Shown here piece after piece: positions 284 to 15,599 of a stretch of DNA of 15,982 nt (positions within the stretch are counted from its first letter, which is position 1; every line of letters starts with the position of its first letter). Under the pieces are notes generated by a model, which saw only the letters and a program-made list of their open reading frames with translations, was not told where the DNA came from and did no database searches. The translations under genes and the position numbers were made by a program. The DNA comes from an uncultured archaeon (GTDB taxonomy: Archaea > Asgardarchaeota > Lokiarchaeia > Sigyniarchaeales > SOKP01): contig CAZOYD010000071.1 in NCBI GenBank assembly GCA_964583985.1, positions 1 through 15,982 of the forward strand, written 5' to 3'.

Positions 284-2467
284 TTAATCTTGATTCAATT
301 TTATTGGTTTATTGGTTTTTATACTTTCAATTGTTTTAAATACTAATTCCATTGCTTTTAAAGCGTCATCTTCATTAACTAGAGCTGTTGATAATCCTAA
401 ATTAGTTAAAATTACCGTATTTAACTCATTTCGGTGTCCCTTGTCTTGTACATTTAAAAGAATGTTTCCAAAACCAAAACCAGAGGTGTTCATTTTTTTA
501 AAATCATCAATCATTATAGCTGAATCTCCAGAATATATCTCAATACGCTCTTTAGGCATGTCTGGACCATTTAGATCGGTATATATTAAGTTAGCTATTG
601 ATCCATTTTGAAAGCTAATCATGACAACGCAACTGTCGAATACCTCTGTATTTTTATGACTCATATTTCCACCTAGTGCAAATATCTCTACCGGGTTTGA
701 ATTCATTAAATATAGAATTAAATCAATAAAATGACAAAATTCACCAATAATTGGACCGCCTCCCGTTTTAGGATCAAATACCCAGTGACTTCCTGGTATG
801 AATGAGCTGGCAATTCGATAATTGATTATTATTGGATTCACGCGTTCGCTAATTAATTTCTTAACATCAATTATTAGTGGACTATATCTTCGATTAAATC
901 CAATACAATAATTTAAGTTAGTGTTTTTGACGGTATCGTGCACCTCAAGACATTCTTGATACGTAATTCCCATTGGTTTTTCGACATAAACATTTTTTCC
1001 AGCTTTAAGCGCCTCAATTGCGAATCTAGCGTGCGTATGATGCTGAGTATAAATAAAAACCGTGTTAATATCTGGATCTTTAAATATTTTTTTGTAATTT
1101 GTTGTTACATAGCCAGGTCTATATTTATCTTTACAAATATCAGCAGATTTTTGCGATTTAGTTGCGATTGCTTTAATCGTGCAATTTTTATTCGGTAATA
1201 AAAGGGGTAAATGCGTTCCTTGAGCGAAGCTTCCACACCCTACTAAACCAATTATCAATTTTTCATGCGGTTGTTTATTTGGGATCTCATGCTGATTAAT
1301 GAGCTTTTCATTCGTTTCTTCTGAAAATTTCAATAATATAGCGATATTGTCGATAGGATCCTCATCTAATTTTTTATAGGCTTGGTCTGCTATTTCAGCG
1401 GGGATAATCTCAGAGATCAACGGAGAAACATCGATTTTTTTCTCTGAGAGTAGTTTTAAAAATAATTCCATATTTCTTTGCTCTGTCCAAGGTACATATT
1501 CTTTAGGATAATCAAAACCTTCAAATTCATAATAAGGGTCATACCTACCAGGTCCATAAGACCGTGAGATCAATAAGTCAGCTTCTTTGTAATATATCTT
1601 ATTCCTATCAACAGAAATTGGAAAAGCGCCTAGCATGACGATTTTTCCTTTATCTCGGATTAATGAAATTGCATCATCTAAGATTTTTGCTGATTTGGAT
1701 GTAGCACAAATTATTACCGTATCTAATAACTTACCATTTGTGAATTCACTGACAATACTTACGCTATTATAATAATTTGGATTGCAAATCGAATCAGCTC
1801 CCAATTTTTTAGCCAAATTTAATCGTTTATTAATTAAATCAAAAGCGATAACTTGAGCTCCACATGCTTTTGCTAATTGAATTGTGATCAAGCCGATCAA
1901 TCCTGTTCCAATTACTCCTATAAATTCTCCAGCGACAATATTTGCTCTATGAATTCCATTAAGAGCTATAGCTCCCAATGTCGAAAAAGCAGCTTCTTCT
2001 AATGAGACATTATCTGGAATTTTACATGTTAGATTTTTAGCCGAAAAAATCATTTCTGCATGACTAGATCCAGCACAAGCTACTCTATCTTGTGGTTTAT
2101 AAGCATCAACATTAGATTCTACTACTACACCTGAGCAACTATAACCCAAAGGTGAAAAATCTGAAAGTGGATTTTTGAAATTTTTCAAAATATTCTTTTC
2201 TTTGTAGATTTTAAATAGTTTTAACAACCTTCTGATTGAATGCTTTCTTAATTCCTCAAACATTTTCCCACGTAAATACTTTGACGAAATAAATTGTTTT
2301 ATTATAGAGGCGCTGATTAATCGTTTCCACTTTATTGCTGCGAGTTCTGTACCGGAACTAATCAATGCATAACTAGTTTTTACAACAGCTCCTAGTGTTT
2401 GCAATTGAGGTTCTCCGACTTCTTTCAAAACTACTTGCCCTTGTGGATTAATATAGAGCTTTTTCAT
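284..2467 (-). CDS. Bi-domain oxidoreductase (N-terminal MDR/Zn-ADH-like domain + C-terminal Gfo/Idh/MocA domain), polysaccharide-biosynthesis associated
   Basis: 727 aa. Motifs LISSGTE, PLGYSCSG, Rossmann GTGLIG and SRSYGPGRYDPYYE..G.DYP..YV.WTE.RN; second Rossmann VGCGSFA, plus VYVEKP, GFNRRYSP, GGPIIGEFCHFID and KERIE. Confidence 0.9.
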   Translation of the reverse strand: MKKLYINPQGQVVLKEVGEPQLQTLGAVVKTSYALISSGTELAAIKWKRLISASIIKQFISSKYLRGKMFEELRKHSIRRLLKLFKIYKEKNILKNFKNPLSDFSPLGYSCSGVVVESNVDAYKPQDRVACAGSSHAEMIFSAKNLTCKIPDNVSLEEAAFSTLGAIALNGIHRANIVAGEFIGVIGTGLIGLITIQLAKACGAQVIAFDLINKRLNLAKKLGADSICNPNYYNSVSIVSEFTNGKLLDTVIICATSKSAKILDDAISLIRDKGKIVMLGAFPISVDRNKIYYKEADLLISRSYGPGRYDPYYEFEGFDYPKEYVPWTEQRNMELFLKLLSEKKIDVSPLISEIIPAEIADQAYKKLDEDPIDNIAILLKFSEETNEKLINQHEIPNKQPHEKLIIGLVGCGSFAQGTHLPLLLPNKNCTIKAIATKSQKSADICKDKYRPGYVTTNYKKIFKDPDINTVFIYTQHHTHARFAIEALKAGKNVYVEKPMGITYQECLEVHDTVKNTNLNYCIGFNRRYSPLIIDVKKLISERVNPIIINYRIASSFIPGSHWVFDPKTGGGPIIGEFCHFIDLILYLMNSNPVEIFALGGNMSHKNTEVFDSCVVMISFQNGSIANLIYTDLNGPDMPKERIEIYSGDSAIMIDDFKKMNTSGFGFGNILLNVQDKGHRNELNTVILTNLGLSTALVNEDDALKAMELVFKTIESIKTNKPIKLNQD

Positions 2468-2489
2468 AGGATTAGATACTAAATTGATT

Positions 2490-2551
2490 GTGCTAAAAGT
2501 TCTTTAAGCAGATGAGTATATAAATAAGCTTTGCTAAAAAAAGATTAGCAC
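2490..2551 (-). promoter_or_regulatory. Putative archaeal-type TATA box (TTTATATA on minus strand, 2517-2524) flanked by two imperfect palindromes
   Basis: TGCTAAAAGTTCTTTAAGCA (2491-2510) and TGCTAAAAAAAGATTAGCA (2532-2550) sit either side of TATATAAA, about 50 nt upstream of the ATG at 2467. Confidence 0.45.
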
Positions 2552-2556
2552 GAATT

Positions 2557-4629
2557 TTATTGGCTAATGACTTTAAATTCTGTAGTGATATTCACACTAT
2601 TTTTACTTGCAAAATTTTCAAATAGTTGTATCTTTAAGACCGGTATTTGTTGAGATTCTCCATATTTGGGAGCAATTTCAGCACTATCTAGTTCATATTG
2701 AAAAGACGAATCTGATGAGATGTTTAGCATTATCTCCTTATTAATTAAGACATTATTCTGTTCTTTTAAATCAATATCTAATAATGTATCTTCAGCAAAA
2801 TGATATATCAAGGCTATTTCATGTGTTTTATTCTCATAATTTTTACTTCTATCTGGCTGAATCATATCTTTAATGATAATTGTTTTTAAATTCCTTGAAA
2901 CCATAACATGCCGTTGAACTAAAAATCCATTATATCCGTCATGATTACATGAAAATTGAACCAAATCATTGCTCTCAATGACTTTTCTGCTAATCTTGGG
3001 TTTTTGGGCCCAACTAAACCAATATAATGGTATAGCTTGACTCTTATTATCAATTGAAATCACATTGTGAGCCATGCTATTCCGGAAATAATTTCTTTCT
3101 TTCATTGATTTATTGTAGGATTTTGTTCCGCTATCTATTAGAATATCTTTCCCGTTATATGAAAAAATTATATTTGATATTCCACTATGAGAATGTGGTG
3201 CATTTTGCGGGCCGAAGTTTCCTAAATCGCTAAATAAATAACTCGATTTATCTCCCCACCCGTCTCTTATGAGAATATATCCAGAATTTTCATAAAATAT
3301 CACTTTTTTTTTTTGCTCATTGAATTTTAAAGAATCTACTGAATTTATCTTTTCGATACCCATCAGTAAGAGTGATATAGGAGATAAATTTTTATTGATA
3401 TTTTTTAAATCAGAAGATTTGAATAAAATGCTGCCCAGGTTTATTAAATCCAAATGCGACTTGTCATTATAACCAGATAATAAAAGAACTTTTCCATTAT
3501 CAACATCACCAACTAAAGGAAGTTTTCCATTAGGTTTAACGATATCCGATAAATTTATAATCATATTTTTGATTATAATCCCTTCAAGACTTTCGATTAA
3601 ATCTTTATTTAGTAGAATAAAAAGTATAAAAAATTCAAGTACAAATCTATGGTAATTAACTGATTGCTCTATGTTAAATCCATCTGGTCGAGTCTGTAAT
3701 GATATTTGTGCTTTTAATTTAGGATATAAGACATGTTCCCAACTTTTTACCTTCTTGTAACCATTAAATATGTTGGAAAATAAGTATCCTCCAAATAATT
3801 CGCCAATAGTATGGTTGAATGATCGTTTGGTGTAAAAAAATCGCAAATAATAAGCATGTTGAAACATGGATCGAAAAATAACCTTGAAAAATTGAGAATC
3901 ATTAATTATTTCTGAGTTTTTAAAAAAATAGAGAGTAAATATCCAAGAAATTAAACGGATCGAAATTTCTAATCCAGAGTACCAATTAATTCCAATCATT
4001 GGTGGATTGCATTTTATCCAGTCCAAGATTATTTCCTTAAATTTAAGAGCATATTTCTCATCTTGAGTGTAATAATATGCAAACCCCAAATATGTTAAAA
4101 AGAGATGTCGGTTTAATTCCCAAACATATTTTACATCAATATTTTGACCATTAAATTTTGGTCTGATTTCTAATTGATTAGATTGAATCATTCTCCAATT
4201 GTAATTATCTACAAAACCATAATGCCAATTAATACCTTTTTCAAATTTTATGCGTTTTTCAAATATCTGAAAGTCATCCTCAATTATACAATTAGCATAG
4301 TCAATAAATTGATCCTTCTCTTTAGAGCATTCCTTGTCCAAGTAGTTAATTATAGCTGAACGTTCTTCTATATTTGAATAAAAGAAGAAACTTTCTTGAA
4401 AAAAAGTCTTGGATAACTCATCAATCTGGAGATTTTTTCCCAGATATTTATTAAATAGGAATTCTGAAGATTTAGAATTGCGTAAATATCTCCTACGTTT
4501 CTTAATTATAGGAATTTGAATGAATTTTTCGAAAAGGATTTTGTAATAATTAACTAAGTTAAAGTATGTTATGGGTCTGGGATTTTTTAAAAATGGGAGT
4601 TTACCCATAATGAATCGCTTATTTATCAT
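2557..4629 (-). CDS. Heparinase II/III-like (alginate lyase fold) protein
   Basis: 690 aa. Motifs DVKYVWELNRH, WI..NPP..GINW, LEISIRLISW, NH, EQSVNYH, GDVD, GP..APHSH, DSGT..Y and R..FR...AHNVI.ID. GAGGA SD-like motif upstream; no obvious signal peptide. Confidence 0.88.
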   Translation of the reverse strand: MINKRFIMGKLPFLKNPRPITYFNLVNYYKILFEKFIQIPIIKKRRRYLRNSKSSEFLFNKYLGKNLQIDELSKTFFQESFFFYSNIEERSAIINYLDKECSKEKDQFIDYANCIIEDDFQIFEKRIKFEKGINWHYGFVDNYNWRMIQSNQLEIRPKFNGQNIDVKYVWELNRHLFLTYLGFAYYYTQDEKYALKFKEIILDWIKCNPPMIGINWYSGLEISIRLISWIFTLYFFKNSEIINDSQFFKVIFRSMFQHAYYLRFFYTKRSFNHTIGELFGGYLFSNIFNGYKKVKSWEHVLYPKLKAQISLQTRPDGFNIEQSVNYHRFVLEFFILFILLNKDLIESLEGIIIKNMIINLSDIVKPNGKLPLVGDVDNGKVLLLSGYNDKSHLDLINLGSILFKSSDLKNINKNLSPISLLLMGIEKINSVDSLKFNEQKKKVIFYENSGYILIRDGWGDKSSYLFSDLGNFGPQNAPHSHSGISNIIFSYNGKDILIDSGTKSYNKSMKERNYFRNSMAHNVISIDNKSQAIPLYWFSWAQKPKISRKVIESNDLVQFSCNHDGYNGFLVQRHVMVSRNLKTIIIKDMIQPDRSKNYENKTHEIALIYHFAEDTLLDIDLKEQNNVLINKEIMLNISSDSSFQYELDSAEIAPKYGESQQIPVLKIQLFENFASKNSVNITTEFKVISQ

Positions 4630-4640
4630 AAATAATCCTC

Positions 4641-5897
4641 TTAAGTAAATTCAACAAATATTTTCTCAATTTCTTTAACTCTATTATCCCACGTATATTG
4701 ATGTAGTTGTTCTGGAGATATACTTGACTCAATTCGGTTTTCTTTTAAACCATTTATTATTTCTTCAAATTTTTTTAGTCCTGTTTCAAAATCGTTGATT
4801 GGAATGGTATAACCGAGATTATTCTTGTCTAAAAATTCTGCTGTATAAGAATTATCTCTCCCTAAATAGAGTATCTTTTTTCCCATGCTTAAATATTCCA
4901 AGATTTTAAAACTTAATGTTGGATAATTAAGATTTTCTCCTACATGTAAAGCTAAAGAAGAATTATATACTTCTTCTAAGCACACTTCACGAAGGACAAA
5001 TCCCTCTAAATGAAAATATGTGGAAACCTCATATTTTTTGAATAGAGATGTTAAACGTGTTGCATCATATCTACCAAATATTTTAATATTTAAAGATATA
5101 TCAGTAAGCTTTCCTAATTTATGAGATATAGATACGATTTTCACTAATGGTTCAAGATCCCTGAGACCATATAAATTACCTGTAAAAGTAAAGGTAATTT
5201 CTTTAGGATTAGCATTTCTTCTAGTTAATTTACTACTCTCATCAACATTGATACCATGAGGAATGGCATGAACATTATTACTTTTTACTTCAGGAAAATT
5301 ATCTAGTAAGAATTTTTTCATACCTTCACTTATTGCAATTATCCTATCAGCAGAATTGAGGATCCTTTTTTCCATTTTCAAATAAAAATTTTCAATTGAC
5401 TTAGTCATCGTGTCTTTTAAATACGGGTTATAAGACCAAGGATCTCTGTATTCTATAATTAAAGGGATTTTACAAAAAAATTTTAATAAATATCCTATTG
5501 GTAAGGTAAAGAATGGTGGTGCCGATACATATATCAATTTTATATTATTCTTTTTAATAATTCTCCTACTTGCCAGAAATGCTAAAGGAATCCAATGAAG
5601 AAAAAGGATAACATTAAAAATCTCAAAATATAGCGTAGTTTTTTTAATATTTGATTGAAATCCTTCCTTCGCAAAACTTAAATTGAAAACCTTCGTGTTT
5701 TTAATTAAGGGAGATTTAACTTTCTTAAGGAGTTCTTTATCCTCATGAGCATTTTTATTCGATTTCGCACTTACAACAAAAATCTTATACCCCTTTTTCG
5801 CTAATCTTTTCGTAATCTCAGAAGCTCTAATGCTCAAAATGTTGCTAAATGGGGGGAAATGGTAAGAAATGAATAATATTTCTTTTAACATGGGCAA
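4641..5897 (-). CDS. Glycosyltransferase family 4 (GT-B); start may be ATG at 5891
   Basis: 418 aa. Motifs FISYHFPP, SAPPF, EYRDPWS.NPY, IPHG, FTGNLY..RD and KILEYLSMGKKIL. Confidence 0.88.
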   Translation of the reverse strand: MPMLKEILFISYHFPPFSNILSIRASEITKRLAKKGYKIFVVSAKSNKNAHEDKELLKKVKSPLIKNTKVFNLSFAKEGFQSNIKKTTLYFEIFNVILFLHWIPLAFLASRRIIKKNNIKLIYVSAPPFFTLPIGYLLKFFCKIPLIIEYRDPWSYNPYLKDTMTKSIENFYLKMEKRILNSADRIIAISEGMKKFLLDNFPEVKSNNVHAIPHGINVDESSKLTRRNANPKEITFTFTGNLYGLRDLEPLVKIVSISHKLGKLTDISLNIKIFGRYDATRLTSLFKKYEVSTYFHLEGFVLREVCLEEVYNSSLALHVGENLNYPTLSFKILEYLSMGKKILYLGRDNSYTAEFLDKNNLGYTIPINDFETGLKKFEEIINGLKENRIESSISPEQLHQYTWDNRVKEIEKIFVEFT

Positions 5898-5961
5898 CTC
5901 TTTTACGTTTTTTAATAAGATAGTGATAAATATTTAAGATATCACGAAAATTAAAAATTTT

Positions 5962-7128
5962 TCATTTCTCCTCGGATTCTGCAAGATATTTCATAAAATC
6001 TTCTTTATATTCTTCTGGATTTTTGTTAGGTCGCTTTAATTCTGCTTTCGTTCCCCGTTTTATATTAATTACTATTAAAATTGGGCCATCTCTCGTTTTG
6101 ATTTCAGGAATGATTTCACCTAATTCTGTTAGAGTATTAACTAAATAAGCAGATTTGTAATTCGATGCCAAGGCAACCTCGCAAAAGTCAACCGAATCTG
6201 AATTTGTTGGTTGACCTCCTGTAGATTCATGAGTATTATTATTGAATATAATTTGTACAAAATTCGTGGGTTTATATTTGCCCACCGTGGAAAACGTACC
6301 AAATTGCATAATTGCTGCGCCATCACCATCAAAAACTACAATTCGCCTATTTGGCTTTTGAAGTGCTATACCTAAACCAATGGAACTCGCACATCCCATA
6401 GAACCGATATTATAAAAACTCTTATAATGATCTTTTTCTCTTTCTTCTCGATATTCATATAGTTCTCGTGAAAGATGACCGGTGCTAGAAATGATTATAC
6501 CTTCAGAAGTGAGATTCTCCATTAAAAAAGTTATGGCATCTTCCCTGTTAATTTCGTATGAATTTTCTGCTATTTCTGAATCGCTATATTTTTGGAATAA
6601 ATTGGGTTTAATAATCAGTGCAAAAGGACCTTTTTTTTCCTTTAGATAACTAATGGCTTCAGAAACATGTGTTTGAATTAATTTTATATCAGGTTCTAGG
6701 ATTTTGTATGGAATCTGAAGAGTATCTAACAGAGATAATGTAATTTTTCCCATTTTCTTATGTTGAGGGGCATCTTTTGTTCCAGGTTCACCTCTCCATC
6801 CAATCATCATGAGAATTGGAATCGAATATACTTCTCTATCGCATAACGAAGTCAATGGATTAACAGTTTTTCCAAGTCCTGAATTTTGTAAGTAAACAAT
6901 ACCAAATTTCTTTGTTGCTAAATGATAACCTGTAGCTATAGCAATTGCTTCACATTCATTGCATGCGACAATGTTTCGCAATAATTCTGGATCCTTTTCA
7001 ATAATGAACTTCATCCACTCCTTGAAAGTCGAATCCGGAATTCCTGTAAAGAAGGTTAAATTATTATCCTTCAAAATCTTAAAAAAATCTTCACATTTTA
7101 TCATATCCGCATCAATCTCTTTAGTCAT
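5962..7128 (-). CDS. aepY: Phosphonopyruvate decarboxylase (Ppd), ThDP-dependent, single chain
   Basis: 388 aa. Motifs FFTGIPDS, YLQNSGLG..VNPL, IGWRGEPG.KD.PQH, GSMG.AS, ThDP motif GDGA...NN and HESTGGQPT. Co-located with PEP mutase; ATGA overlap with the upstream gene and GAGGA upstream. Confidence 0.92.
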   Translation of the reverse strand: MTKEIDADMIKCEDFFKILKDNNLTFFTGIPDSTFKEWMKFIIEKDPELLRNIVACNECEAIAIATGYHLATKKFGIVYLQNSGLGKTVNPLTSLCDREVYSIPILMMIGWRGEPGTKDAPQHKKMGKITLSLLDTLQIPYKILEPDIKLIQTHVSEAISYLKEKKGPFALIIKPNLFQKYSDSEIAENSYEINREDAITFLMENLTSEGIIISSTGHLSRELYEYREEREKDHYKSFYNIGSMGCASSIGLGIALQKPNRRIVVFDGDGAAIMQFGTFSTVGKYKPTNFVQIIFNNNTHESTGGQPTNSDSVDFCEVALASNYKSAYLVNTLTELGEIIPEIKTRDGPILIVINIKRGTKAELKRPNKNPEEYKEDFMKYLAESEEK

Positions 7129-7847
7129 CTTAATTCCTCTTTATAATAAGTTCGAGCTACTTCTAAATCTTCAAAATCATCAATTTCCATGCACTTCTCG
7201 TCATTGATATAGTTAGGTCTCAAATCTAATTTGTCTAAAATCTCATTTAAAGCATCTTCCGCATAACAAGAAACTTGATCGTTTTTTACGTATTTTTCTA
7301 TTTCTTTAAACCATTCCTCAAAGAAATGTTTTGAAAGTTTATACAACGGGGCTAAGAAAGCACAATCCTCCCCAAATTCATTTACACCAATTTTTATGAT
7401 TCTATCATCAATAATTCGCGCTTTAAAATCTTTTTGAGGGACTTGCATTTCTCTATTAACTAGAACACAATTTTTTTCATCATTTTTAATAATTTGATTC
7501 AAAATATTGTCCGAAAAGATTAAATCTCCATGCATTAATAGAACATCATCATTGATTTGATTTTTAGTTAAATATAAGGAATAGATGTAATTAGTTTGAT
7601 CATATTTTGGATTTTGTATATAGACCACATGAAGACTTGGATAGTTCAATTCAACATGGTGCTTAATCATGCCTTCAAAAGGCCCAGTGAGAATCACGAG
7701 TTTTTCTAAACCACTTTTGATGAGATTTTCAAGTTGAACATCCAATATAGTTTTATCATTATTCACTTTAACTAAACATTTAGGATTATTTTCCGTGAGA
7801 TGACCAAGTCTTTTTCCAATTCCCGCATTCAAAATTATAACTTTCAT
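7125..7847 (-). CDS. LicC/PntC-family nucleotidyl (cytidylyl) transferase, probably phosphonate-activating
   Basis: 240 aa. Motifs IILNAGIGKRL..LT...PKCL, NPKYDQTNYIYSL, LLMHGDL and EIDDFEDL. ATGA overlaps on both sides (7844-7847 and 7125-7128). Confidence 0.88.
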   Translation of the reverse strand: MKVIILNAGIGKRLGHLTENNPKCLVKVNNDKTILDVQLENLIKSGLEKLVILTGPFEGMIKHHVELNYPSLHVVYIQNPKYDQTNYIYSLYLTKNQINDDVLLMHGDLIFSDNILNQIIKNDEKNCVLVNREMQVPQKDFKARIIDDRIIKIGVNEFGEDCAFLAPLYKLSKHFFEEWFKEIEKYVKNDQVSCYAEDALNEILDKLDLRPNYINDEKCMEIDDFEDLEVARTYYKEELR

Positions 7848-8992
7848 CTTATTTCTCTTAAAATACCCCTCAGTTCTGATTCAGTCAGTATTCTTGGGTT
7901 ATTTTTAACTCTATTAGGTGTGAAACCATTTTTTATAATTAATTCGATATCATCTTCTGATTTTATTCCTAGCGAGTGTAAATTTGTTTCTAATGCTATA
8001 TCATCCATTAGAGTTAATATGTTGGCTTTAGCTTCTTCGAAATTTGATGCATTCAAAAAGGATATCAAATCTTTTAATGTTTTTTTCACGAATAAGACAC
8101 CCCTTGCATCTTGACAATCTTTTTCTTTTATTTCTGAATTGAAAATAATCATCGGAGGTAAAGTTAAAGCAACGGCGTGACCGTGAGGTACATGGAAATA
8201 TGATGTTATAGGATATGATATTGCATGACATGCTGTAGTTTTTGTAATATTTATTGCTTTTCCTGCATAATTAGCAGCAATTGCCATGTTTATTCGAGAA
8301 TCTTTATCTGGATCATTCACGGCCTTAACAAGATTAGACATTATTAACTCAATTGCTTTTTTTGAATATCCTTTTGATTCGTTAGTGGAATATATATTCC
8401 AATACGATTCAATTGCTTGAGTTAAGGCATCCATTCCTGAATAAGCGGTAATTTTCTTTGGTAATTTTAGGCTGAACTGGGGATCAACAATGATATAATC
8501 GGGTTTTAAGAAATTTTGATCTACCAAGGAATATTTCGTTTTTCCGATATAAACTACTGCAAAATGTGTTGCTTCACTACCAGAACCCGCAGTTGTCGGG
8601 ATTCTAATTAGTGGAATGCCTTTTTTCGAGATCGGTATTTCTTTTTTTATTATTTTTATTGGATCCCCTTCATTTGATGAAAATATAGAAATGGCTTTCC
8701 CCATATCCTGAACAGAACCCCCTCCAATGGCAATTATTACATCATAGCTCTCTTGTTTGAATAAATCTAACCCCTTTTTAATATCTTGAATGTTTGGATT
8801 AGGTGCGAAATCGTTAAATTGATAGTATTGGACTCCCCTGAGTAAATCTAGCATAACACTTTTAATCTCTTTCTGTTCAAATGAGTTCTTTCCAGTAATC
8901 AAGAATATCTTTTTAAAATTATTCTTTTCTATGATATCCTTTAAATTCTCAATTGAATCAAATCCAATGTATTCCAGCATGCGATTTCTCAA
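7844..8992 (-). CDS. Phosphonoacetaldehyde reductase (iron-containing group III ADH, HEP-forming); start TTG at 8992 or ATG at 8980
   Basis: 382 aa. Motifs PNP, GGGSV.D.GK, IPTTAGSGSEATHFAV, DALTQAIES.W, AGKAINITKTTACHAISYP and PHGHAV, typical of the PhpC/FomC-like subfamily. Lies between pepM and ppd. Confidence 0.9.
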   Translation of the reverse strand: MRNRMLEYIGFDSIENLKDIIEKNNFKKIFLITGKNSFEQKEIKSVMLDLLRGVQYYQFNDFAPNPNIQDIKKGLDLFKQESYDVIIAIGGGSVQDMGKAISIFSSNEGDPIKIIKKEIPISKKGIPLIRIPTTAGSGSEATHFAVVYIGKTKYSLVDQNFLKPDYIIVDPQFSLKLPKKITAYSGMDALTQAIESYWNIYSTNESKGYSKKAIELIMSNLVKAVNDPDKDSRINMAIAANYAGKAINITKTTACHAISYPITSYFHVPHGHAVALTLPPMIIFNSEIKEKDCQDARGVLFVKKTLKDLISFLNASNFEEAKANILTLMDDIALETNLHSLGIKSEDDIELIIKNGFTPNRVKNNPRILTESELRGILREIR

Positions 8993-9017
8993 GGAAATTT
9001 ATGATTTACTCTTTTTG

Positions 9018-9053
9018 TATTTAAAAATTATTTAAAAATTATTTAAAAATTAT
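9018..9053. repeat. Perfect tandem repeat (TATTTAAAAAT) x3 plus a partial copy
   Basis: 11-bp units at 9018-9028, 9029-9039 and 9040-9050, then TAT. Overlaps the pepM stop codon. Confidence 0.9.
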
Positions 9054-10744
9054 AGAAGCTTTTCAGCCACTTCTACATCATTCTTATTATGGATTTCAAA
9101 CCAACCCTTGTATACTTCTAATAAATTGACTTTAAAGCCCCTATCAATAACCTCTTGAATGAAATCGGTAAAAGAAGCATTTTCAAAGGATTCGGCTTCG
9201 TGAAATGGATCATCATGATTTGCAACACATTCATGATAAATTTTCTTTATTATACTTGCACCATATTCTGAAAAATACGCGATCCCGGTGAATTCATAAT
9301 CCGCCATGTTTGTATTTATATTTTTTCCTATTCTTATGACTTCATTATCTTTTAGGTACAACATCCTACGCTCTTTGATAGGTTTATTTTTGGCCAAAAT
9401 TAAATCCAATTTTTTATCAACGTCGTGTTTATGATAAGTATAGGAATTATCAACCACTAATACCATATCTTGAGACGTATTTAATAAATTATTAATTATT
9501 TGCTTGTCAAATAAGATATCCGAATTAAGATAAATGAACCCATTACTCATGTCTTCTTCAGCTTTAAATAAAGAATGGAGGATATACGTTTTATCATAAT
9601 CGGGATTATATACATACTTTATCCCATCGATATTGATTAAGTTTCCCTTGTATCCTTTAACTACGGTGATGTCTTCTAACCCGCAACTTCTTAGTATTTC
9701 TCTCTGGCGCACGAGTAGTTCTTTCCCTTTGACTTTGACGACTGATTTGGGTTTATCAAATAACAAATCTTTTCCAGCAGCCGGAATAATGACCCGTATA
9801 TTTCTTTCTTTATACTTTAAATCCTTTTCCCTTACCTCAATAAATCCCACGTCTTCAAAAATCGTGTTAACAGGACTGCACATTGATTCAACTTCAAAGG
9901 CTCTCCCATGTTTTAAAATATTCAAAGCTGTTTCTTTCATTACTTTATGAGCCGCGCGAAGCAAATGGTTAGCATAAATTACAACATTAAACCCTTTTTC
10001 TCTCAATTCCGCTTCACTTACGGTATTATATGTGGTCGGAACGCAAATGAGAGGTTTTCGCATGCCTAATTCCTCTGATAATTTTTGATATTCCCTAGCA
10101 AAGTCAAAAATATCTTCTGGATTATCTTTTTTAGAATGAATCATGATTGCATCCACTCCCGCATCCAAATATTTTTTTGCTCTGAATAACGCATCTTCCA
10201 GACCTGCTCCAGCAATAAAACTTTCTATTCTGGCAGCGATCATGAAATCTGGTGATAATTGAATGCTTTTTCCTCTCTCAATTTTGATCGCAAAGGTATT
10301 AGGGTCTTCCTGAGTCTGCTTCGCTCGAGGATCCAAGCTATTTCTCTTTGGGAATACTTTATCTTCAATAATGACCATGGAAACGCCCATATTTTCCAAT
10401 TCTCTTATAAAATACTCAAAATTTGTAGCTTCCCCTCCCGTATCTCCATCAACTATTAACGGTTTAGTAGAACTATTGAGGATCTGCTTAATTGTGGTGT
10501 ATCTTGATTCAGAGCCCACTATGTCCGCATCAGGATACCCTTTTGAGGCACTATCCGTTAAACTGCTTTCCCATAACGCGTCAAATTCATATACTTCATC
10601 CCCAACCTTTTTTTTAATGTCATTTGCAATAATCGCACTCAATCCATTATGTGCTTCAATTACTCTTACAAAACCTTTCTTATCAAGCAATTGCTTTAAT
10701 GCCTTCCTTCTTTCTTCTGGGGCTATCCTGTTCTTTAAACTCAT
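9050..10744 (-). CDS. aepX: Phosphoenolpyruvate mutase (PepM) fused to a C-terminal nucleotidyltransferase-like domain
   Basis: 564 aa. Diagnostic EDKxxxxxNS motif EDKVFPKRNS (10337-10366), plus EAHNGLSA, WESSLTDS..KG.PD, VDGDTGG, ARIES, MIHS, VPTTY and VIYANHLLRA. From about 9797 an NTP-transferase domain: VIIPAAG...PK, VVKGY, YILHSL, SDILF, GWFEIH. Confidence 0.96.
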   Translation of the reverse strand: MSLKNRIAPEERRKALKQLLDKKGFVRVIEAHNGLSAIIANDIKKKVGDEVYEFDALWESSLTDSASKGYPDADIVGSESRYTTIKQILNSSTKPLIVDGDTGGEATNFEYFIRELENMGVSMVIIEDKVFPKRNSLDPRAKQTQEDPNTFAIKIERGKSIQLSPDFMIAARIESFIAGAGLEDALFRAKKYLDAGVDAIMIHSKKDNPEDIFDFAREYQKLSEELGMRKPLICVPTTYNTVSEAELREKGFNVVIYANHLLRAAHKVMKETALNILKHGRAFEVESMCSPVNTIFEDVGFIEVREKDLKYKERNIRVIIPAAGKDLLFDKPKSVVKVKGKELLVRQREILRSCGLEDITVVKGYKGNLINIDGIKYVYNPDYDKTYILHSLFKAEEDMSNGFIYLNSDILFDKQIINNLLNTSQDMVLVVDNSYTYHKHDVDKKLDLILAKNKPIKERRMLYLKDNEVIRIGKNINTNMADYEFTGIAYFSEYGASIIKKIYHECVANHDDPFHEAESFENASFTDFIQEVIDRGFKVNLLEVYKGWFEIHNKNDVEVAEKLL

Positions 10745-10797
10745 GTTCTGCTAACTATTTTTTATATTTTAAAAATCAAATTTTCTTTCAATGGTGT

Positions 10798-10823
10798 TAT
10801 CATTACCAAGACTATCATTACCA
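10798..10823. repeat. 11-bp direct repeat TATCATTACCA x2 in the pepM/tagF divergent intergenic region
   Basis: Exact copies at 10798-10808 and 10813-10823. Confidence 0.75.
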
Positions 10824-10884
10824 TGAATAGATATCTTTTACTATTCCTCATAAATATTTATCGATCATACTATAAACTAATATT

Positions 10885-10950
10885 TTATTTTGATAAGTTA
10901 TAGAGAGAATTTATGTTTTCTCCCATGGCAAAATAAATCTCATCGGACAT
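10885..10950 (-). pseudogene. Decayed 5' fragment of a wecB duplicate
   Basis: Reads (LNL)MSDEIYFAMGENINSLYNLSK* versus WecB (LNL)MSEEIYFVAGARPNF. By hand count 29/32 nt are identical between 10929-10960 and 13503-13534. Confidence 0.75.
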
Positions 10951-11044
10951 CAAATTCAATCAGAACCTTCAAATTTTGTATTTTTTGTAGAAGTTGTAAA
11001 ATAAATATATTTAATACAAGATTAAATGCATTCAATTAGAAAAA
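10921..11044. repeat. Degenerate direct repeat, copy 1 (copy 2 at 13495-13618)
   Basis: Two conserved blocks at the same 2574-bp offset: CAAAATAAATCTC.TC.GACATCA.ATTCAAT and ACAAGATTAAATGCA..CAAT.AGAAAAA. Confidence 0.85.
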
Positions 11045-11069
11045 AAAATATGATAAAGAGAAATATGCA

Positions 11070-12290
11070 ATGAATTTACAATTTGAGAAGTTCTCGTTTA
11101 TAAATAAGAGTTATTATTATAAATTTATAAGGGACATTCTCCTACCTTTCGGTCTCAAAATTATTTCCAAATTGTTTCGGGGCAATATTGATGAAAAGCT
11201 AATAATTATGGGCGCTTATGGTGGAAATTTTTACTTGGGAAATCCTCGAGCATTATTTGAATTCTTAAACAAGCACTCAAATTATAAAGTGGTCTGGATA
11301 ACGAAATCAAATAATTTAGTTAAAGAATTAAGAAGAAAGGGGTATAATGTCATTTACTCGTTAAATATTAATGCAATTAGATTATTAAGAAAAGCAAAAT
11401 TTGTCTTTATTACTCATGGAATCTATGATGTATTGCCAATAGAATTTTCCCCCGGTACAACAATTATTCAAACTTGGCATGGAACCCCAATAAAAAAAAT
11501 CGTTCTTGACGAAACAGGTAACTACGCATACTCAAAATGGAGTAATATACTAAAATTAAAATTGAGATATGACCAGTACATAGATTTCTTGTTAACTCCA
11601 ACAAGGGGCGGCTTGGAGCACGAAAACTTAAGCTCAGCCTTTAAGATCCCTCTAAATAAAATTATCAGTCTAGGATACCCAAGACATGATATTTTATTTA
11701 ACAAAGATGAGGAATTTATCAAATCTTTAAAGAAAAAATTTGAGATCTCTGATGATTTTAATAAAATTATGTTGTATTGCCCAACTTTTAGAGAGTTTGA
11801 AACAACAAGCTTTAAGATTTCAGATAGAGATTTAGAAAACCTAGATGGCATGCTAAAGGAAACTAACTCGCTTTTTCTAATCAAAGGCCATCTTTTTGGA
11901 AAATTAGCTGATCATCGAGGACATGCTAATATTAGAAATATCTCAAGAGAAATTGACATTCATGAACTATATCTAATTTCAGACATATTAATCACCGATT
12001 ATTCGTCAGCGATGATTGATTTCTCTTTATTGGATAAACCAGTTTTACTATTTCCATATGATTTAGATGAATACATTAAAAAGCGAGGCTTCTATTACAA
12101 TTTAAATGATATTGCACCTGGACCTTTAATATTTACTTTTACTGAATTAATTGAAGCGCTGAGAAATATTGATGAAATTGAAAAAATTTACGGTGAAAAA
12201 CGAAGAAAAATACGAGATCGCTTCAACAAGTACGTGGATGGAGATTCTACAAAAAGAATTTTAGACTTCTTACAAATTCCCTATTATTAA
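11070..12290 (+). CDS. CDP-glycerol:poly(glycerophosphate) glycerophosphotransferase family (TagB/TagF-like) protein
   Basis: 406 aa. Motifs QTWHGTPIKK, GYPRHD, LYCPTFR, KGH, LITDYSSAMIDF and YDLDEY...RGFY. Confidence 0.92.
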   Translation: MNLQFEKFSFINKSYYYKFIRDILLPFGLKIISKLFRGNIDEKLIIMGAYGGNFYLGNPRALFEFLNKHSNYKVVWITKSNNLVKELRRKGYNVIYSLNINAIRLLRKAKFVFITHGIYDVLPIEFSPGTTIIQTWHGTPIKKIVLDETGNYAYSKWSNILKLKLRYDQYIDFLLTPTRGGLEHENLSSAFKIPLNKIISLGYPRHDILFNKDEEFIKSLKKKFEISDDFNKIMLYCPTFREFETTSFKISDRDLENLDGMLKETNSLFLIKGHLFGKLADHRGHANIRNISREIDIHELYLISDILITDYSSAMIDFSLLDKPVLLFPYDLDEYIKKRGFYYNLNDIAPGPLIFTFTELIEALRNIDEIEKIYGEKRRKIRDRFNKYVDGDSTKRILDFLQIPYY

Positions 12291-12426: not shown

Positions 12427-13539
12427 TTATTCAAAATATTTTATTTTAATAATATCCATGATTCTTCTTGCCGCGTTTCCATCCCACCCTGCAATTTCTT
12501 GCCCTTTCTTGTATTTAGACTCTAAAATGTCATTGATTTGACCCTTTAACAATTCAAAATCTCGCCCGATAATCGTGTTTGTTCCAAATTCTACGGTAAT
12601 AGGACGTTCAGTATTCTCTCTCAGAGTTAAGATAGGTATTCCCAGATAAGAAGCCTCTTCTTGAATGCCTCCTGAATCCGTTAAGATCAATTTTGAATTA
12701 ACCATCAAATTTAGAAACTCTAAATATCCGATAGGTTCGCTTATAATCAAATTTTCACTTTTTAATCGTTCATATAAACCATATTCAATGAGATTCTTAT
12801 TTGTTCTCGGATGAACTGGGAAAAAAATCTTAATTCTCTCACTTAGATAATTTAACGCATCAACTATTTTTATTAAATCCTCTTTTTTATCTACATTAGA
12901 AGGTCTATGGAGTGTGATTAGAGCGTATTCCTTTTTTCGCAATCCCAAACTCTTATAAGTATCAAGAAGTTTTGCTTTTTCCAAATTCATGACCAAAGTA
13001 TCAATCATCACATTCCCAACAAAAAAAATCTTCTCTTCCTCAATTCCTTCATTCTTTAAGTTGATTTCAGCGTCTTTTTCCGATGTAAACAAAAGATCAG
13101 AGATTTGATCAGTTAAAACCCTGTTAATCTCCTCTGGCATCTTTCTATCAAAGCTTCTTAGTCCTGCTTCCACGTGTGCAACATCAATAAAAAGTTTCTT
13201 AGCAACTAACGCACACGCAATGGTGGAATTCACGTCTCCGACCACTACGACAAGCTTCGGCTTTTCTTTTAACAAGAGTTTCTCAAATTCAATCATTATT
13301 TTTGCTGTTTGGTATGCATGTGTCCCAGATCCTGCTTCAAGAAAATGATCCGGCTCGGGAATCTTTAAGGCATCAAAAAATACACGAGACATGTTGTAAT
13401 CATAATGTTGACCAGTATGAATGATTTTAAACTTGATTCCTAGCTCCACCGATTGATGAACTAATGGAGCAATCTTCATGAAATTCGGTCTCGCTCCTGC
13501 GACAAAATAAATCTCTTCTGACATCAGATTCAATTCCAA
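12427..13539 (-). CDS. wecB: UDP-N-acetylglucosamine 2-epimerase (non-hydrolysing); likely start ATG at 13524
   Basis: Motifs GARPNFMKIAP, HTGQHYD, VGDVNST, HVEAGLRS, MPEEINR, TLHRPSNVD, TDSGGIQEE, RENTERP and WDG.AA.RI. Confidence 0.96.
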   Translation of the reverse strand: MELNLMSEEIYFVAGARPNFMKIAPLVHQSVELGIKFKIIHTGQHYDYNMSRVFFDALKIPEPDHFLEAGSGTHAYQTAKIMIEFEKLLLKEKPKLVVVVGDVNSTIACALVAKKLFIDVAHVEAGLRSFDRKMPEEINRVLTDQISDLLFTSEKDAEINLKNEGIEEEKIFFVGNVMIDTLVMNLEKAKLLDTYKSLGLRKKEYALITLHRPSNVDKKEDLIKIVDALNYLSERIKIFFPVHPRTNKNLIEYGLYERLKSENLIISEPIGYLEFLNLMVNSKLILTDSGGIQEEASYLGIPILTLRENTERPITVEFGTNTIIGRDFELLKGQINDILESKYKKGQEIAGWDGNAARRIMDIIKIKYFE

Positions 13540-13679: not shown

Positions 13680-15599
13680 TCATATAATTTCATACAATTG
13701 AAATTGCTGAATACTATTTCCTCCCGCTATTCTCTCAAATAACGTCTCATTTTCAATATGCAATCGGAGAGCTTCATTATAATTTGCCAATTTTATGATA
13801 AAGTATTCTACATTATTAATTTGCCAAAAAGTAGTAAATTCGGTTATCGTCAAGTTGTAGTCATCTGAATAAGGAAATAGATGCTGATTAAACAACAATC
13901 CAAAAGGGGAATGCGTTTCTTGGAACGTGTAATTTATATAATTCCACCCTACCCCAATATTAGATGACACCTCTGAAGTATTCTCGATATAAAACACAAT
14001 AGCAATGAGCGAATCATCATATCTATATTCAAATTCTAAATTCTCTCGAACATAGATCAAATTCAAGCAAGATGCAAGAATGATTGTAAAAATTATTAGG
14101 TTCGGAACATTTAATACCCGACTAAACTGATTATCCGCATTAATCCACTTGTTAAATTTTAACTTGGAAATTTTGAGTTTTTGCCAGTAGTTTTCTAAAT
14201 ATAATTTTAATCTATACAATGAAATTCCAGATAGAAGAACAACACAAGGAAAAAAAGCTTCGAGAATTCTGGGGTAATAAGTATCAAAAAAACCTATTTT
14301 AATAAAAATTGGGAGAATGCAAAATATTCCAAACGTTAATAGTACGCAAATTTTTAGGAAACGATAAAAATCTCTCCTTTTCTGATCTTTAACATCTCTA
14401 TTTCTGATGAAAATTCCCATGATAGGTAAAACTAAGAATATAAAGTAATAGACTCCACCTAATATTAAGTTAAATACATTGGTTTCTTCAATAATAATAG
14501 GAGTGAAAGAAATAGTAATTGCATCGATTGTGGAGTATTGGATAAAATATGCGAAAATCTCAACAATATTTTTCCCATAAAACATGATTACACTAATACC
14601 ATACACCGATAAAAAAAATAATGACAATAACGCAATTGACCCCACTTCTCTATAAATCAAGGATCTCTTGGATCGGAAGTTTAAGATTTCATGGGAAGAA
14701 AAAACAATTAATGCTAATAAAATAAAAAACGAATAGACCGGATTAATGAGAAAAATAGCCGGTAGTATAAATCCTACGAAATAATTCGGAATTTCCGTTA
14801 AAAGAATAATCAATGAAATCAAGATCAGCAAAACTGCAAGACTGGATGAGAGAAAACTAAAAATCCGATATAAAAAATACATGTTAGACAAAACTGCTAA
14901 TAAACAAAAGAATATTAGAAAGTTCTCCTTGAATATCCTTCTCGATATCGTGTATAAAATTAAAACATACAAATTGAGATATGGAAAACATGCCAATTTC
15001 ATGAAATAATAGGTCGTGGTAAAATCAGGTGAAATCATTACACTTCCACTGCAAAACATGATGAAACCCCACGGATAAGTCCAACCCTGCTCTTGATAAT
15101 TTACCATCCCATTTTCATTAAGATACATTACTTGCCGAGTCCAATAATAGGGGTCACCAGCCAATAACGCCGAATTCTCAAAGATTGATGACCAATAAAT
15201 CAAAAATTGAACTAAAAAGATAAAGAATATAATAAAACCATGAATAAGGAGTTCTTTTTGGTTCGACTTTAACGCTCTTATTAAATAAGACCATGTTTCA
15301 TGAAATGTCTTATTTCTGAGAAAATAAAATAGAAGAAGTGCCAAGATTATTAACAGCGGTAAATACGCGGTGTAAAAATTAAAAATCTTGAAACTGATAA
15401 GGATATATCCTAAGCATAGGTATATCATTATCCCAACAGCAAATGAAATAAAGCAATATTCAAGTAGGGTTAGATTCCATCGTTTTTTGCTGTATTTCCG
15501 AAGTATATATACAACCATTCCTCCCAATGAAGCAATGAGAACAAAAAATAATGAAAATTGTGCATAAGTTATTAGGAGTTGATTGGTTATTGTCATCAT
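13680..15599 (-). CDS. Polytopic membrane protein (about 13-14 hydrophobic segments by eye), putative GT-C/STT3-like glycosyltransferase
   Basis: 639 aa, strongly hydrophobic. Loop motifs LLAGDPYYW and YPWGF; soluble C-terminal domain of about 120 aa. The CDS is secure, the function tentative. Confidence 0.7.
   Translation of the reverse strand: MMTITNQLLITYAQFSLFFVLIASLGGMVVYILRKYSKKRWNLTLLEYCFISFAVGIMIYLCLGYILISFKIFNFYTAYLPLLIILALLLFYFLRNKTFHETWSYLIRALKSNQKELLIHGFIIFFIFLVQFLIYWSSIFENSALLAGDPYYWTRQVMYLNENGMVNYQEQGWTYPWGFIMFCSGSVMISPDFTTTYYFMKLACFPYLNLYVLILYTISRRIFKENFLIFFCLLAVLSNMYFLYRIFSFLSSSLAVLLILISLIILLTEIPNYFVGFILPAIFLINPVYSFFILLALIVFSSHEILNFRSKRSLIYREVGSIALLSLFFLSVYGISVIMFYGKNIVEIFAYFIQYSTIDAITISFTPIIIEETNVFNLILGGVYYFIFLVLPIMGIFIRNRDVKDQKRRDFYRFLKICVLLTFGIFCILPIFIKIGFFDTYYPRILEAFFPCVVLLSGISLYRLKLYLENYWQKLKISKLKFNKWINADNQFSRVLNVPNLIIFTIILASCLNLIYVRENLEFEYRYDDSLIAIVFYIENTSEVSSNIGVGWNYINYTFQETHSPFGLLFNQHLFPYSDDYNLTITEFTTFWQINNVEYFIIKLANYNEALRLHIENETLFERIAGGNSIQQFQLYEII

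Follow-up and report, generated by a model that had tools for sequence, protein, structure and literature searches.

A likely 2-hydroxyethylphosphonate tailoring cassette within a surface-glycan island of an Asgard archaeon

Introduction

2-Hydroxyethylphosphonate (HEP) is a major phosphonate among those bound to polysaccharides in marine dissolved organic matter (PMC8942020, PMC13576164), and HEP phosphonoglycans have been published from Stackebrandtia nassauensis and a Glycomyces sp. (Yu et al. 2014, as cited in PMC8942020 and PMC13576164). Here we describe a candidate cassette for glycan-bound HEP on contig CAZOYD010000071.1 (G000:C71) of an archaeon of the Promethearchaeota (Asgard archaea); this 16 kb contig was analysed over its whole length and is called the window below. 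As those two sources report for the actinobacteria, a phosphoenolpyruvate (PEP) mutase (PepM or Ppm), a phosphonopyruvate decarboxylase (Ppd) and an iron-dependent alcohol dehydrogenase (Fe-ADH), families that are also encoded in the window, lead there to HEP as the end phosphonate, esterified to an extracellular polysaccharide; their product has been isolated, whereas the Asgard cassette is known here from its genes alone. HEP-type loci make up 8.5% of ppm gene neighbourhoods, of which only two have yielded products, namely methylphosphonate in Nitrosopumilus maritimus and the HEP-polysaccharide of S. nassauensis (PMC8942020).

The window also resembles the Pnt pathway for 2-aminoethylphosphonate (AEP), which comprises Ppm, Ppd, an AEP transaminase (AEPT), PntC and a LicD-like protein (Rice et al. 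2019, PMC6697681). Both have a fusion of PepM with a PF12804 domain and a separate LicC-like cytidylyltransferase, and in the Pnt pathway, as we propose here, a CMP-phosphonate is the activated donor for cell-surface glycans. Of the known Ppm enzymes, 33% are PepM-PF12804 fusions; clusters that contain both a fused and a separate nucleotidyltransferase (NTase) have been described, as have CMP-phosphonates as donors for surface tailoring (PMC6697681). The window differs from the Pnt pathway in having Fe-ADH in place of the transaminase, which would give HEP rather than AEP, in having His in its stand-alone NTase (NTP2) where the Tde-PntC enzyme has Glu104, and in having a TagF-family gene where the LicD-like transferases stand.

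In the fosfomycin pathway Fom1 (a cytidylyltransferase-PepM fusion), Fom2 (Ppd) and FomC (Fe-ADH) carry out the same three reactions, after which HEP is cytidylylated to CMP-HEP. The cytidylyltransferase of Fom1 is an N-terminal PF01467 domain, whereas the window has a C-terminal PF12804 domain with a degenerate loop in addition to the separate LicC-like enzyme; its locus lacks Fom3, FomD and Fom4, and its PepM falls in the other deep clade. With the methylphosphonate cluster of N. maritimus (ppm-ppd-pdh-mpnS) the window shares an archaeal pepM-ppd-Fe-ADH core with NTase and glycan genes nearby, but MpnS was not found in the window or in the genome. Wall teichoic acid synthesis offers a further parallel. 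There TagD makes CDP-glycerol, TagB, TagF and TarF transfer glycerol phosphate, and MnaA/WecB supplies the N-acetylmannosamine (ManNAc) of the linkage unit, GlcNAc-ManNAc. The likeness lies in a cytidylyl-activated alcohol phosphate or phosphonate, a GT-B transferase of the TagF family with a catalytic His, and an adjacent UDP-GlcNAc 2-epimerase. In the window, by contrast, the donor would be a CMP-phosphonate, the host is archaeal and has no peptidoglycan, and no equivalents of TagD, TagO or TagA were identified.

The original prediction for this stretch, made from its sequence, had presented it as a candidate new phosphonoglycan system. That novelty does not hold, since HEP phosphonoglycans, PepM-PF12804 fusions and clusters with fused and separate NTases are all published and the same core occurs in many phyla. 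Bacteria already provide precedent for the chemistry, and the cassette turns up in many further lineages; the locus therefore extends known biology and overturns nothing. A limited literature search returned no relevant paper linking Asgard archaea with phosphonates or describing phosphonyl transferases of the TagF family.

Results and Discussion

The cassette and its proposed pathway

We consider it likely that the window carries an intact phosphonyl-tailoring cassette of five genes within a variable surface-glycan island, by which HEP would be made, activated with CTP and put on a glycan by a TagF-like enzyme. The features that bear on this reading are as follows.

9050..10744, minus: PepM with a C-terminal LicC-like NTase domain (TIGR02320, PF13714, PF12804)
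7844..8992, minus: group III Fe-ADH, putative phosphonoacetaldehyde reductase (PhpC/FomC/Pdh role; PF00465, PF25137)
7125..7847, minus: NTP2, stand-alone LicC/PntC-like NTase, putative CTP:HEP cytidylyltransferase (NTP_transferase; PDB 1JYK, 6PD1)
5962..7128, minus: Ppd, phosphonopyruvate decarboxylase (TIGR03297)
11070..12290, plus: TagF/TarF-family transferase, putative CMP-HEP:glycan 2-hydroxyethylphosphonyl transferase (PF04464, Glyphos_transf)
10745..11069: intergenic region of 325 bp between the divergent pepM and TagF-like genes, presumed from their positions to hold both promoters

In the pathway that we propose, the PepM domain would convert PEP to phosphonopyruvate, Ppd would decarboxylate this to phosphonoacetaldehyde, and the Fe-ADH would reduce the aldehyde to HEP. 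NTP2 would then form CMP-HEP from HEP and CTP, and the TagF-like enzyme would move the 2-hydroxyethylphosphonyl group from CMP-HEP onto a hydroxyl of a lipid-linked glycan with release of CMP, in parallel with glycerol-phosphate transfer from CDP-glycerol. The glycan itself would be built by a GT4-family glycosyltransferase with ManNAc supplied through WecB, and would afterwards be handled outside the cell by an enzyme of GT-C fold.

Nine of the ten large open reading frames (ORFs) form a single minus-strand array, the TagF-like gene being the plus-strand exception. The minus-strand order is pepM-NTase, a 57-nt gap, Fe-ADH, NTP2, ppd, GT4, a heparinase-like gene, a bi-domain oxidoreductase gene and, where the contig stops, a truncated ORF. 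Past the other flank of pepM come the divergent TagF-like gene and then, again on the minus strand, wecB and the gene of a 639-aa membrane protein. The genes that the original prediction had named (pepM, ppd, Fe-ADH, the two NTase domains, GT4, TagF-like, wecB and heparinase-like) are all present and were correctly placed, and the ATGA overlaps by which it had joined reductase, cytidylyltransferase and ppd are real, lying at 7844-7847 (Fe-ADH/NTP2) and 7125-7128 (NTP2/ppd). It was also right that the window lacks an AEP transaminase and an MpnS/HepD cupin, as no ORF of at least 80 aa matched either.

The window is an entire contig of a metagenome-assembled genome (MAG) of 3.8 Mb, estimated to be 100% complete and containing an archaeal 16S gene, and the glycan island therefore runs on past both of its ends. 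The GC content of the contig is 30.9%, against 31.7 +/- 1.3% for the genome, and the nearest homologs of its PepM (88-93% identity) are named Promethearchaeota or Lokiarchaeota. A mis-binned contig was ruled out by the GC match and by the closest homologs of both PepM and the GT-C-fold protein, which are from Promethearchaeota.

Predicted synthesis of HEP

PepM scored 341.8 bits with TIGR02320 (equivalog cut-off 319.55) and 344 bits in the search of the whole genome, in which it was the only PepM. Its PepM domain spans residues 1 to about 300 and is followed by the C-terminal NTase domain at residues ∼317-564. The translation carries IIEDKVFPKRNS (Ppm catalytic motif EDKVFPKRNS), of which E127, D128, K129, N135 and S136 are invariant in our PepM alignment; the EDKxxxxxNS motif tells Ppm apart from its isocitrate-lyase relatives (PMC6697681). 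Ppd likewise exceeded its cut-off (TIGR03297, 426.7 bits versus 312.5), and both of its thiamine diphosphate domains, PF02776 and PF02775, were matched.

For the Fe-ADH, an ATG at 8980 is a likelier start than the TTG at 8992 and yields a protein of 378 aa, the length of its 81%-identical ortholog in locus L029. We compared 92 PepM loci and found orthologs of this Fe-ADH, as defined by a BLAST cluster, in 51 of them, mostly adjoining Ppd and including locus L088, which bears MpnS. From this gene context the substrate of the enzyme would be phosphonoacetaldehyde, which it would reduce to HEP. The route from PEP through phosphonopyruvate and phosphonoacetaldehyde to HEP that had been read from the sequence is thus complete, with PepM and Ppd above their cut-offs and the Fe-ADH linked to them.

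Proposed activation of HEP and the two nucleotidyltransferase domains

NTP2 matched the structures of LicC (PDB 1JYK, 3.4e-12) and Tde-PntC (6PD1, 1e-9), and its G-loop, LNAGIGKRL, has the canonical (A)AGxGxRL signature. Glu104 and Glu196 of Tde-PntC form hydrogen bonds with the amine of AEP (PMC6697681), and in a HMMER alignment Glu104 pairs with His106 of NTP2. We surveyed this position in 41 LicC-like NTases from PepM loci and observed His in all 24 NTP2 orthologs, every one of them from an Fe-ADH locus and together representing ∼8 lineages, Glu in all 8 NTases from loci with a class-V aminotransferase (AEP loci), and Tyr in a third group, counts which are not independent because the proteins are related to one another. 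The His/Glu split is the pattern that a HEP-specific enzyme would be predicted to show; it argues against AEP as the substrate and not against cytidylyltransferase activity. We infer that NTP2 is a CTP:HEP cytidylyltransferase, and suggest that His, Glu or Tyr at this position may help to predict which phosphonate a LicC-like enzyme activates.

The domain fused to PepM (window 9050-9796, minus strand) is of a different kind. In place of AAGxGxRL it has PAAGKDLLF, without GxGxR and without the Arg, and retains the Lys of PK and the Asp of SD. The degenerate loop is common to all 27 C-terminally fused PepMs that we aligned, including those of Nitrospinota, and is 3-4 residues shorter in the Asgard forms. 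The original prediction of two NTase domains therefore stands as to their presence, but the two are not equivalent, the fused one lacking the GxGxR signature. From its sequence the fused domain could be regulatory or of altered specificity; the only NTases characterized by Rice et al. were stand-alone enzymes (PMC6697681).

HEP as the likely end phosphonate

To look for MpnS or HepD in the genome we used as query a 452-aa cupin protein from a marine archaeal locus (L088:8211-9569), one of 80 PepM loci taken from species-representative genomes, where it lies between an NTase and PepM. This protein is MpnS-like, matching the structures of MpnS (PDB 6B9S) at 6e-93 and of HepD (6B9R) at 3e-65. It returned no homolog from the genome at E<=10, nor by TBLASTN at E<=0.1, and PhnW and AepZ were likewise not detected in the genome at the TIGR03301/TIGR02326 cut-offs, the best class-V aminotransferase reaching 174.8 bits versus 360.8. 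The latter gene, on contig C34, adjoins a phosphoglycerate dehydrogenase gene (serA) and scores higher with the model for BhcA (aspartate-glyoxylate aminotransferase), which is why we regard it as a housekeeping enzyme of serine metabolism. The genome-wide check for mpnS, hepD and aepZ that the original prediction had called for thus came out in favour of its reading. Since the loci of Asgard relatives also contain no MpnS, transaminase or Fom3-type radical S-adenosylmethionine (radical-SAM) gene (14 family-f1 loci, several with 10-kb flanks), HEP is likely to be the end phosphonate, and not a step on the way to AEP or methylphosphonate.

HEP might instead be an intermediate which enzymes encoded off the contig turn into methylphosphonate, hydroxypropylphosphonate or a small-molecule phosphonate natural product. 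Other HEP loci do contain MpnS (L088, L058) or Fom3-type B12 radical-SAM genes (L055, L056, L088, L095), the contig ends inside the island, and the MAG is in 138 contigs, so that gene absence is unproven; class-B radical-SAM genes moreover occur on contigs C4 and C6. However, the latter are only 24-27% identical to the Fom3-like genes of other HEP loci and are unlinked to the cassette, the genome yielded no MpnS/HepD match, the 14 Asgard f1 loci contain no such tailoring gene, and the genes surrounding the cassette are all glycan-related. We therefore consider further conversion of HEP very unlikely.

Other products were examined and set aside. AEP was rejected because there is no linked transaminase, because the best candidate lies beside serA and because NTP2 lacks the amine-binding Glu. 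Methylphosphonate was rejected for now, as MpnS/HepD was not found, and a fosfomycin-like small molecule was rejected since neither the window nor the Asgard f1 loci contain a Fom3-type radical-SAM gene, FomD or HppE. A phosphonolipid is not favoured, because the CDP-alcohol phosphatidyltransferase of locus L026 has no ortholog in this genome at 1e-10. In L026 that gene (16019-16894) lies near PepM, and there it may provide an alternative, phosphonolipid route; a membrane protein of the sulfatase/LtaS family adjoins PepM in loci of the sister genus (L024 7360-8946, L026 13231-14736).

During these comparisons we observed a MpnS-like protein of 634 aa in the Vampirovibrionales (L058 7634-9538, plus strand), in which a stretch of ∼160 residues at the N-terminus is similar to the NTase domain fused to PepM (28% identity to window 9056-9505). 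It would be an NTase-MpnS fusion, a hint that MpnS may act alongside cytidylylation. Genes for B12-binding radical-SAM proteins, Fom3/PhpK-like according to Pfam, were found in HEP-type loci of a candidate phyla radiation (CPR) bacterium, DPANN archaea, a marine archaeon and an Elusimicrobia bacterium (L055 2332-3780 and 5192-, L056 3925-, L088 10900-, L095 15785-). Such enzymes could methylate CMP-HEP; none is encoded in the window or the Asgard f1 loci.

Proposed transfer to the glycan by a TagF-like enzyme

The TagF-like protein, of 406 aa, matched PF04464 with 265 bits (gathering threshold 22.1) and aligns with the catalytic domain of TagF (PDB 3L7I, 7e-42). The motif that holds the catalytic His, IQTWHGTP (TagF H444), is kept, and is identical to that of TagF in the 3L7M alignment. 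Equivalog cut-offs for teichoic acid enzymes were missed (TarF, 203 bits versus 550; TarL, 103 versus 1000; TarB, 87 versus 500). No TagD was detected in the genome, where the best score with TIGR01518 was 28 bits against a cut-off of 165 and the PF01467 matches are pantetheine-phosphate adenylyltransferase (PPAT), nicotinamide mononucleotide adenylyltransferase (NMNAT) and generic members, and no IspD/TarI protein scored above cut-off (PF01128 was below it). The cassette's own enzymes are therefore the only ones available for activation.

Association with HEP-type loci points the same way. With a hidden Markov model (HMM) built from TagF-like sequences we found such genes in 16 of the 51 Fe-ADH loci and in none of the 14 aminotransferase (AEP-type) loci (Fisher p = 0.014, a value that is overstated because the loci are related), and PepM/Fe-ADH loci with adjoining TagF-like genes occur in at least 8 phyla. 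Among Asgard relatives, L007 and L029-L033 have the gene adjacent to pepM, and L022 and L023 have it ∼3 kb away. A second, unrelated subfamily of Glyphos_transf proteins is encoded directly beside PepM/Ppd/Fe-ADH operons, which it ends, in at least 7 bacterial phyla (Melainabacteria, Gemmatimonadota, Ignavibacteriota, Rifleibacteriota, Elusimicrobiota, Actinomycetota and Bacteroidota). The PepM of these operons is of the Fom1 type, with an N-terminal PF01467 cytidylyltransferase domain, and that domain of Fom1 is an experimentally shown HEP cytidylyltransferase (as cited in PMC6697681). Recruitment of two subfamilies to HEP clusters is our strongest argument that Glyphos_transf enzymes accept CMP-HEP, which is probably also the donor of the TagF-like enzyme in the window. 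Activation as a CMP conjugate by a LicC/PntC-type enzyme and a glycan destination, both foreseen in the original prediction, fit the structural matches and the conserved neighbourhood.

From CMP-HEP onward the enzyme might alternatively act as a polymerase, the free 2-hydroxyl of one HEP attacking the next CMP-HEP; the product would be poly(2-hydroxyethylphosphonate), an analog of teichoic acid with C-P bonds, on a ManNAc-containing linkage unit. HEP has a free hydroxyl as glycerol phosphate does, the nearest solved relative of the TagF-like protein is the polymerase TagF, followed by the polymerases Cps3D and TarL, wecB next to a TagF-like gene is reminiscent of the linkage unit in wall teichoic acid, and the two paralogs in the genome could serve as primer and polymerase. 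However, 406 aa is the size of the non-polymerizing TagB/TarF class and TarF is the best NCBIfam match, and the published HEP glycans, going by the papers that cite them, bear HEP as a side group (Yu et al. 2014, as cited in PMC8942020). Single addition and polymerization are not separable by sequence alone. We regard a polymer as quite improbable.

The donor itself may also be questioned. HEP and CMP-HEP would then still be made, but the TagF-like enzyme would use another CDP-alcohol, supplied by the PepM-fused NTase or by an NTase encoded elsewhere, and HEP would be attached by another route or would be a soluble or exported metabolite. The TagF-like subfamily is indeed present in four same-family Asgard genomes that lack PepM (G120, G152, G103 and G143, 95-98% complete), the copy in G120 standing beside a different LicC-like NTase and a major facilitator superfamily (MFS) transporter and that in G152 adjoining yet another type of NTase. 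A second TagF-like copy, 56% identical, is also encoded in the window's own genome (G000:C33:34969-36171, minus strand). The subfamily can therefore work with a donor that the PepM of the same cell does not make. In three PepM-bearing genomes of the sister genus no TagF-like gene occurs within 10 kb of pepM, and in one of them, G191, none was found genome-wide at E<=1e-30; sister-genus loci pair the core instead with an MFS transporter, a sulfatase-family protein and a CDP-alcohol phosphatidyltransferase. The window gene is, moreover, divergent from pepM, unlike that of relatives, where both are on the same strand (L029 840-2063, L007 154-1368). Against this, the genome lacks TagD, a TarI-type enzyme and an ortholog of the G120-type NTase, TagF-like genes at or near pepM recur in Asgard relatives and are missing from AEP-type loci, and the second subfamily described above ends Fom1-type operons. 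We judge another donor to be rather unlikely.

Besides this scatter of the TagF-like subfamily, the fragmented assembly and the radical-SAM genes of C4 and C6, other findings weigh against transfer of HEP from CMP-HEP to a glycan as we propose it. The Fe-ADH misses the curated phosphonate model TIGR03405 (Phn_Fe-ADH), with 190.8 bits versus 423.7, and scores slightly higher, 208 bits, with a lactaldehyde reductase model. The proposed pathway assigns no role to the PepM-fused NTase domain and names no acceptor.

The junction with the TagF-like gene appears to be mosaic. The window gene is 56% identical to the copy in L029, whereas the flanking pepM and wecB genes are 88% identical; with the copy in G124 the window gene shares 80% identity, against only 71% for the pepM of that genome. 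The low TagF-like identity to L029, compared with 81-88% for the core genes, and the inversion together point to recombination at the junction.

Several further observations concern the relatives of the TagF-like gene. The copy on C33 lies ∼600 bp from the contig end, beside a GDP-mannose-dehydratase-like gene (also L120 14961-16040); a TagD candidate near it was rejected, as the PF01467 gene there encodes PPAT and stands beside phenylalanyl-tRNA synthetase (PheRS) genes. In PepM-less G120, of the same genus, a Tyr-type LicC-like NTase, an MFS transporter and the TagF-like gene lie together (L133, G120:C23, 5927-9303). This NTase and transporter share 82% and 81% identity with their counterparts in a pair adjoining PepM in the sister genus (L026 10975-13068), and a like pair of MFS transporter and Tyr-type NTase adjoins PepM in Ca. 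Lokiarchaeum ossiferum (L070 6963-9246). From these arrangements, the module of NTase, transporter and TagF-like gene may serve in salvage, importing and activating the same compound or one like it. No ortholog of the G120-type pair was detected in the window's genome.

Glycan context and the acceptor

The remaining genes of the window are the following.

4641..5897, minus: GT4-family glycosyltransferase, 64 nt downstream of ppd (PF13439, 3e-16)
12427..13539, minus: WecB, non-hydrolysing UDP-GlcNAc 2-epimerase, for UDP-ManNAc supply (TIGR00236)
13680..15599, minus: polytopic membrane protein of 639 aa, GT-C fold (AlphaFold2 model and Foldseek)
2557..4629, minus: heparinase II/III-like protein (PF07940, PF16889)
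284..2467, minus: bi-domain oxidoreductase, Zn-ADH-like plus Gfo/Idh/MocA (PF00107, PF01408, PF22725)

WecB scored 343 bits with TIGR00236 (cut-off 210), and its 88%-identical ortholog in L029 adjoins the TagF-like gene; a GT4 ortholog of 78% identity occupies the same position in that locus. The acceptor had been predicted to contain ManNAc and a uronate. The wecB gene agrees with ManNAc, but the uronate found no support, since the window encodes no UDP-sugar 6-dehydrogenase.

The 639-aa protein matched no Pfam or NCBIfam model. Its family was seen only in Asgard-derived sequences, all 39 homologs being from Promethearchaeota where the source is named. In a Foldseek search with its AlphaFold2 model (pLDDT 80, pTM 0.83) the top 30 PDB matches were all GT-C proteins (STT3, AglB, PglB, ALG9, ArnT, AftA and DPY19; probability 1.00, TM-score 0.36-0.48), the best having E values of about 1e-5 and TM-scores of 0.44-0.48. 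No WWDxG was seen in the translation, and Asp149, which is invariant, falls within the region of the first external loop. The protein is probably, from its modelled fold, an extracellular glycosyltransferase with a lipid-linked donor, and its presence in the island supports a lipid-linked, extracytoplasmic glycan pathway. Homologs lie ∼16 kb from PepM in three genomes (G170:C18:13035-14975, G008:C12:15519-17459 and G191:C30:56756-58696), and a family HMM gave no match in L. ossiferum. All NCBIfam matches of the bi-domain oxidoreductase were far under cut-off; by its domains it is probably a sugar-nucleotide oxidoreductase. Heparinase-like and bi-domain oxidoreductase genes resembling those of the window (284-4629) recur near PepM in a member of the Cyclobacteriaceae (L062 8021- and 15815-), with 30% and 35% identity.

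A bolder proposal, which we think unlikely, is that TagF-family proteins are the missing phosphonyl transferases of HEP clusters and that in Asgard archaea they use CMP-HEP to decorate an N-acetylhexosamine (HexNAc) of N-glycans or to build a teichoic-acid-like chain of poly(2-hydroxyethylphosphonate). If true, either product would give the closest prokaryotic relatives of eukaryotes a surface polymer with C-P bonds, and the HexNAc option would account for the unassigned 311.08-Da residue of Promethearchaeum syntrophicum. N-glycans of that archaeon of 909.30 and 801.30 Da differ by 108.00 Da on a suggested HexNAc derivative (PMC11284389). We calculated 311.077 Da for HexNAc plus C2H5O3P, against 310.093 Da with AEP and 281.066 Da with methylphosphonate. 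The best 120 homologs of the L. ossiferum PepM included no protein named P. syntrophicum. The mass fits, but isobaric alternatives exist and PepM is not shown in P. syntrophicum, and we treat the link to HEP as a lead that was not used as evidence.

Distribution, phylogeny and significance

We detected the PepM domain in 10 of 200 sampled genomes of the phylum and in only 2 of the 14 genomes of the window's own genus. All loci of the window's family keep PepM-NTase, Ppd, Fe-ADH and NTP2 together in varying order, and the flanking genes vary from locus to locus (GT2, GT4, Wzx, methyltransferases, sulfate activation, NeuB and ABC-2 exporters). The core genes of the window share 81-88% identity with those of L029, the closest locus. 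This pattern is, as far as gene content can tell, that of a cassette moving among variable glycan islands.

The PepM tree has two deep clades, each with 100% support in the Shimodaira-Hasegawa-like approximate likelihood ratio test (SH-aLRT). One comprises the C-terminal PF12804 fusions, among which the window's family forms a single group, together with sequences from Nitrospinota, Chloroflexota, Thermoplasmata, Methanosarcinales, Bathyarchaeia and a CPR bacterium. The N-terminal PF01467 fusions (Fom1 type) form the other, which includes Ca. Lokiarchaeum ossiferum, a second Asgard family and DPANN archaea. Since Asgard archaea are represented in both clades, their PepM has two distinct origins.

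A large pool of the organic phosphorus in the sea and in sediments consists of phosphonates. The Asgard cassette would add a sediment-dwelling archaeal lineage to the likely producers of glycan-bound HEP, and the TagF-like gene offers a specific candidate for the step that moves a CMP-activated phosphonate onto a glycan. The prediction is testable by 31P nuclear magnetic resonance (31P-NMR), since L. ossiferum is in culture and carries a related PepM/Ppd/Fe-ADH/NTP2 locus (L070).

Among the more distant relatives, the PepM-NTase fusions of Nitrospinota (L038, L040, L042-L044, L046-L048 and L051) are ∼50% identical to that of the window. No Ppd or Fe-ADH gene lies within 10 kb of them; the neighbours in L038, the single locus of this set with annotation, are housekeeping genes, such as those for prolyl-tRNA synthetase (ProRS) and an M50 protease, and the corresponding gene clusters recur in most of the Nitrospinota loci listed. 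In the window's own genome, two contigs of ∼11 kb encode homologs, 41% and 38% identical (G000:C92:2554-4791 and C89:3024-4646), of a 759-aa protein and a Wzx-like flippase that adjoin the PepM cassette in the sister genus, and C92 and C89 may be further fragments of the island.

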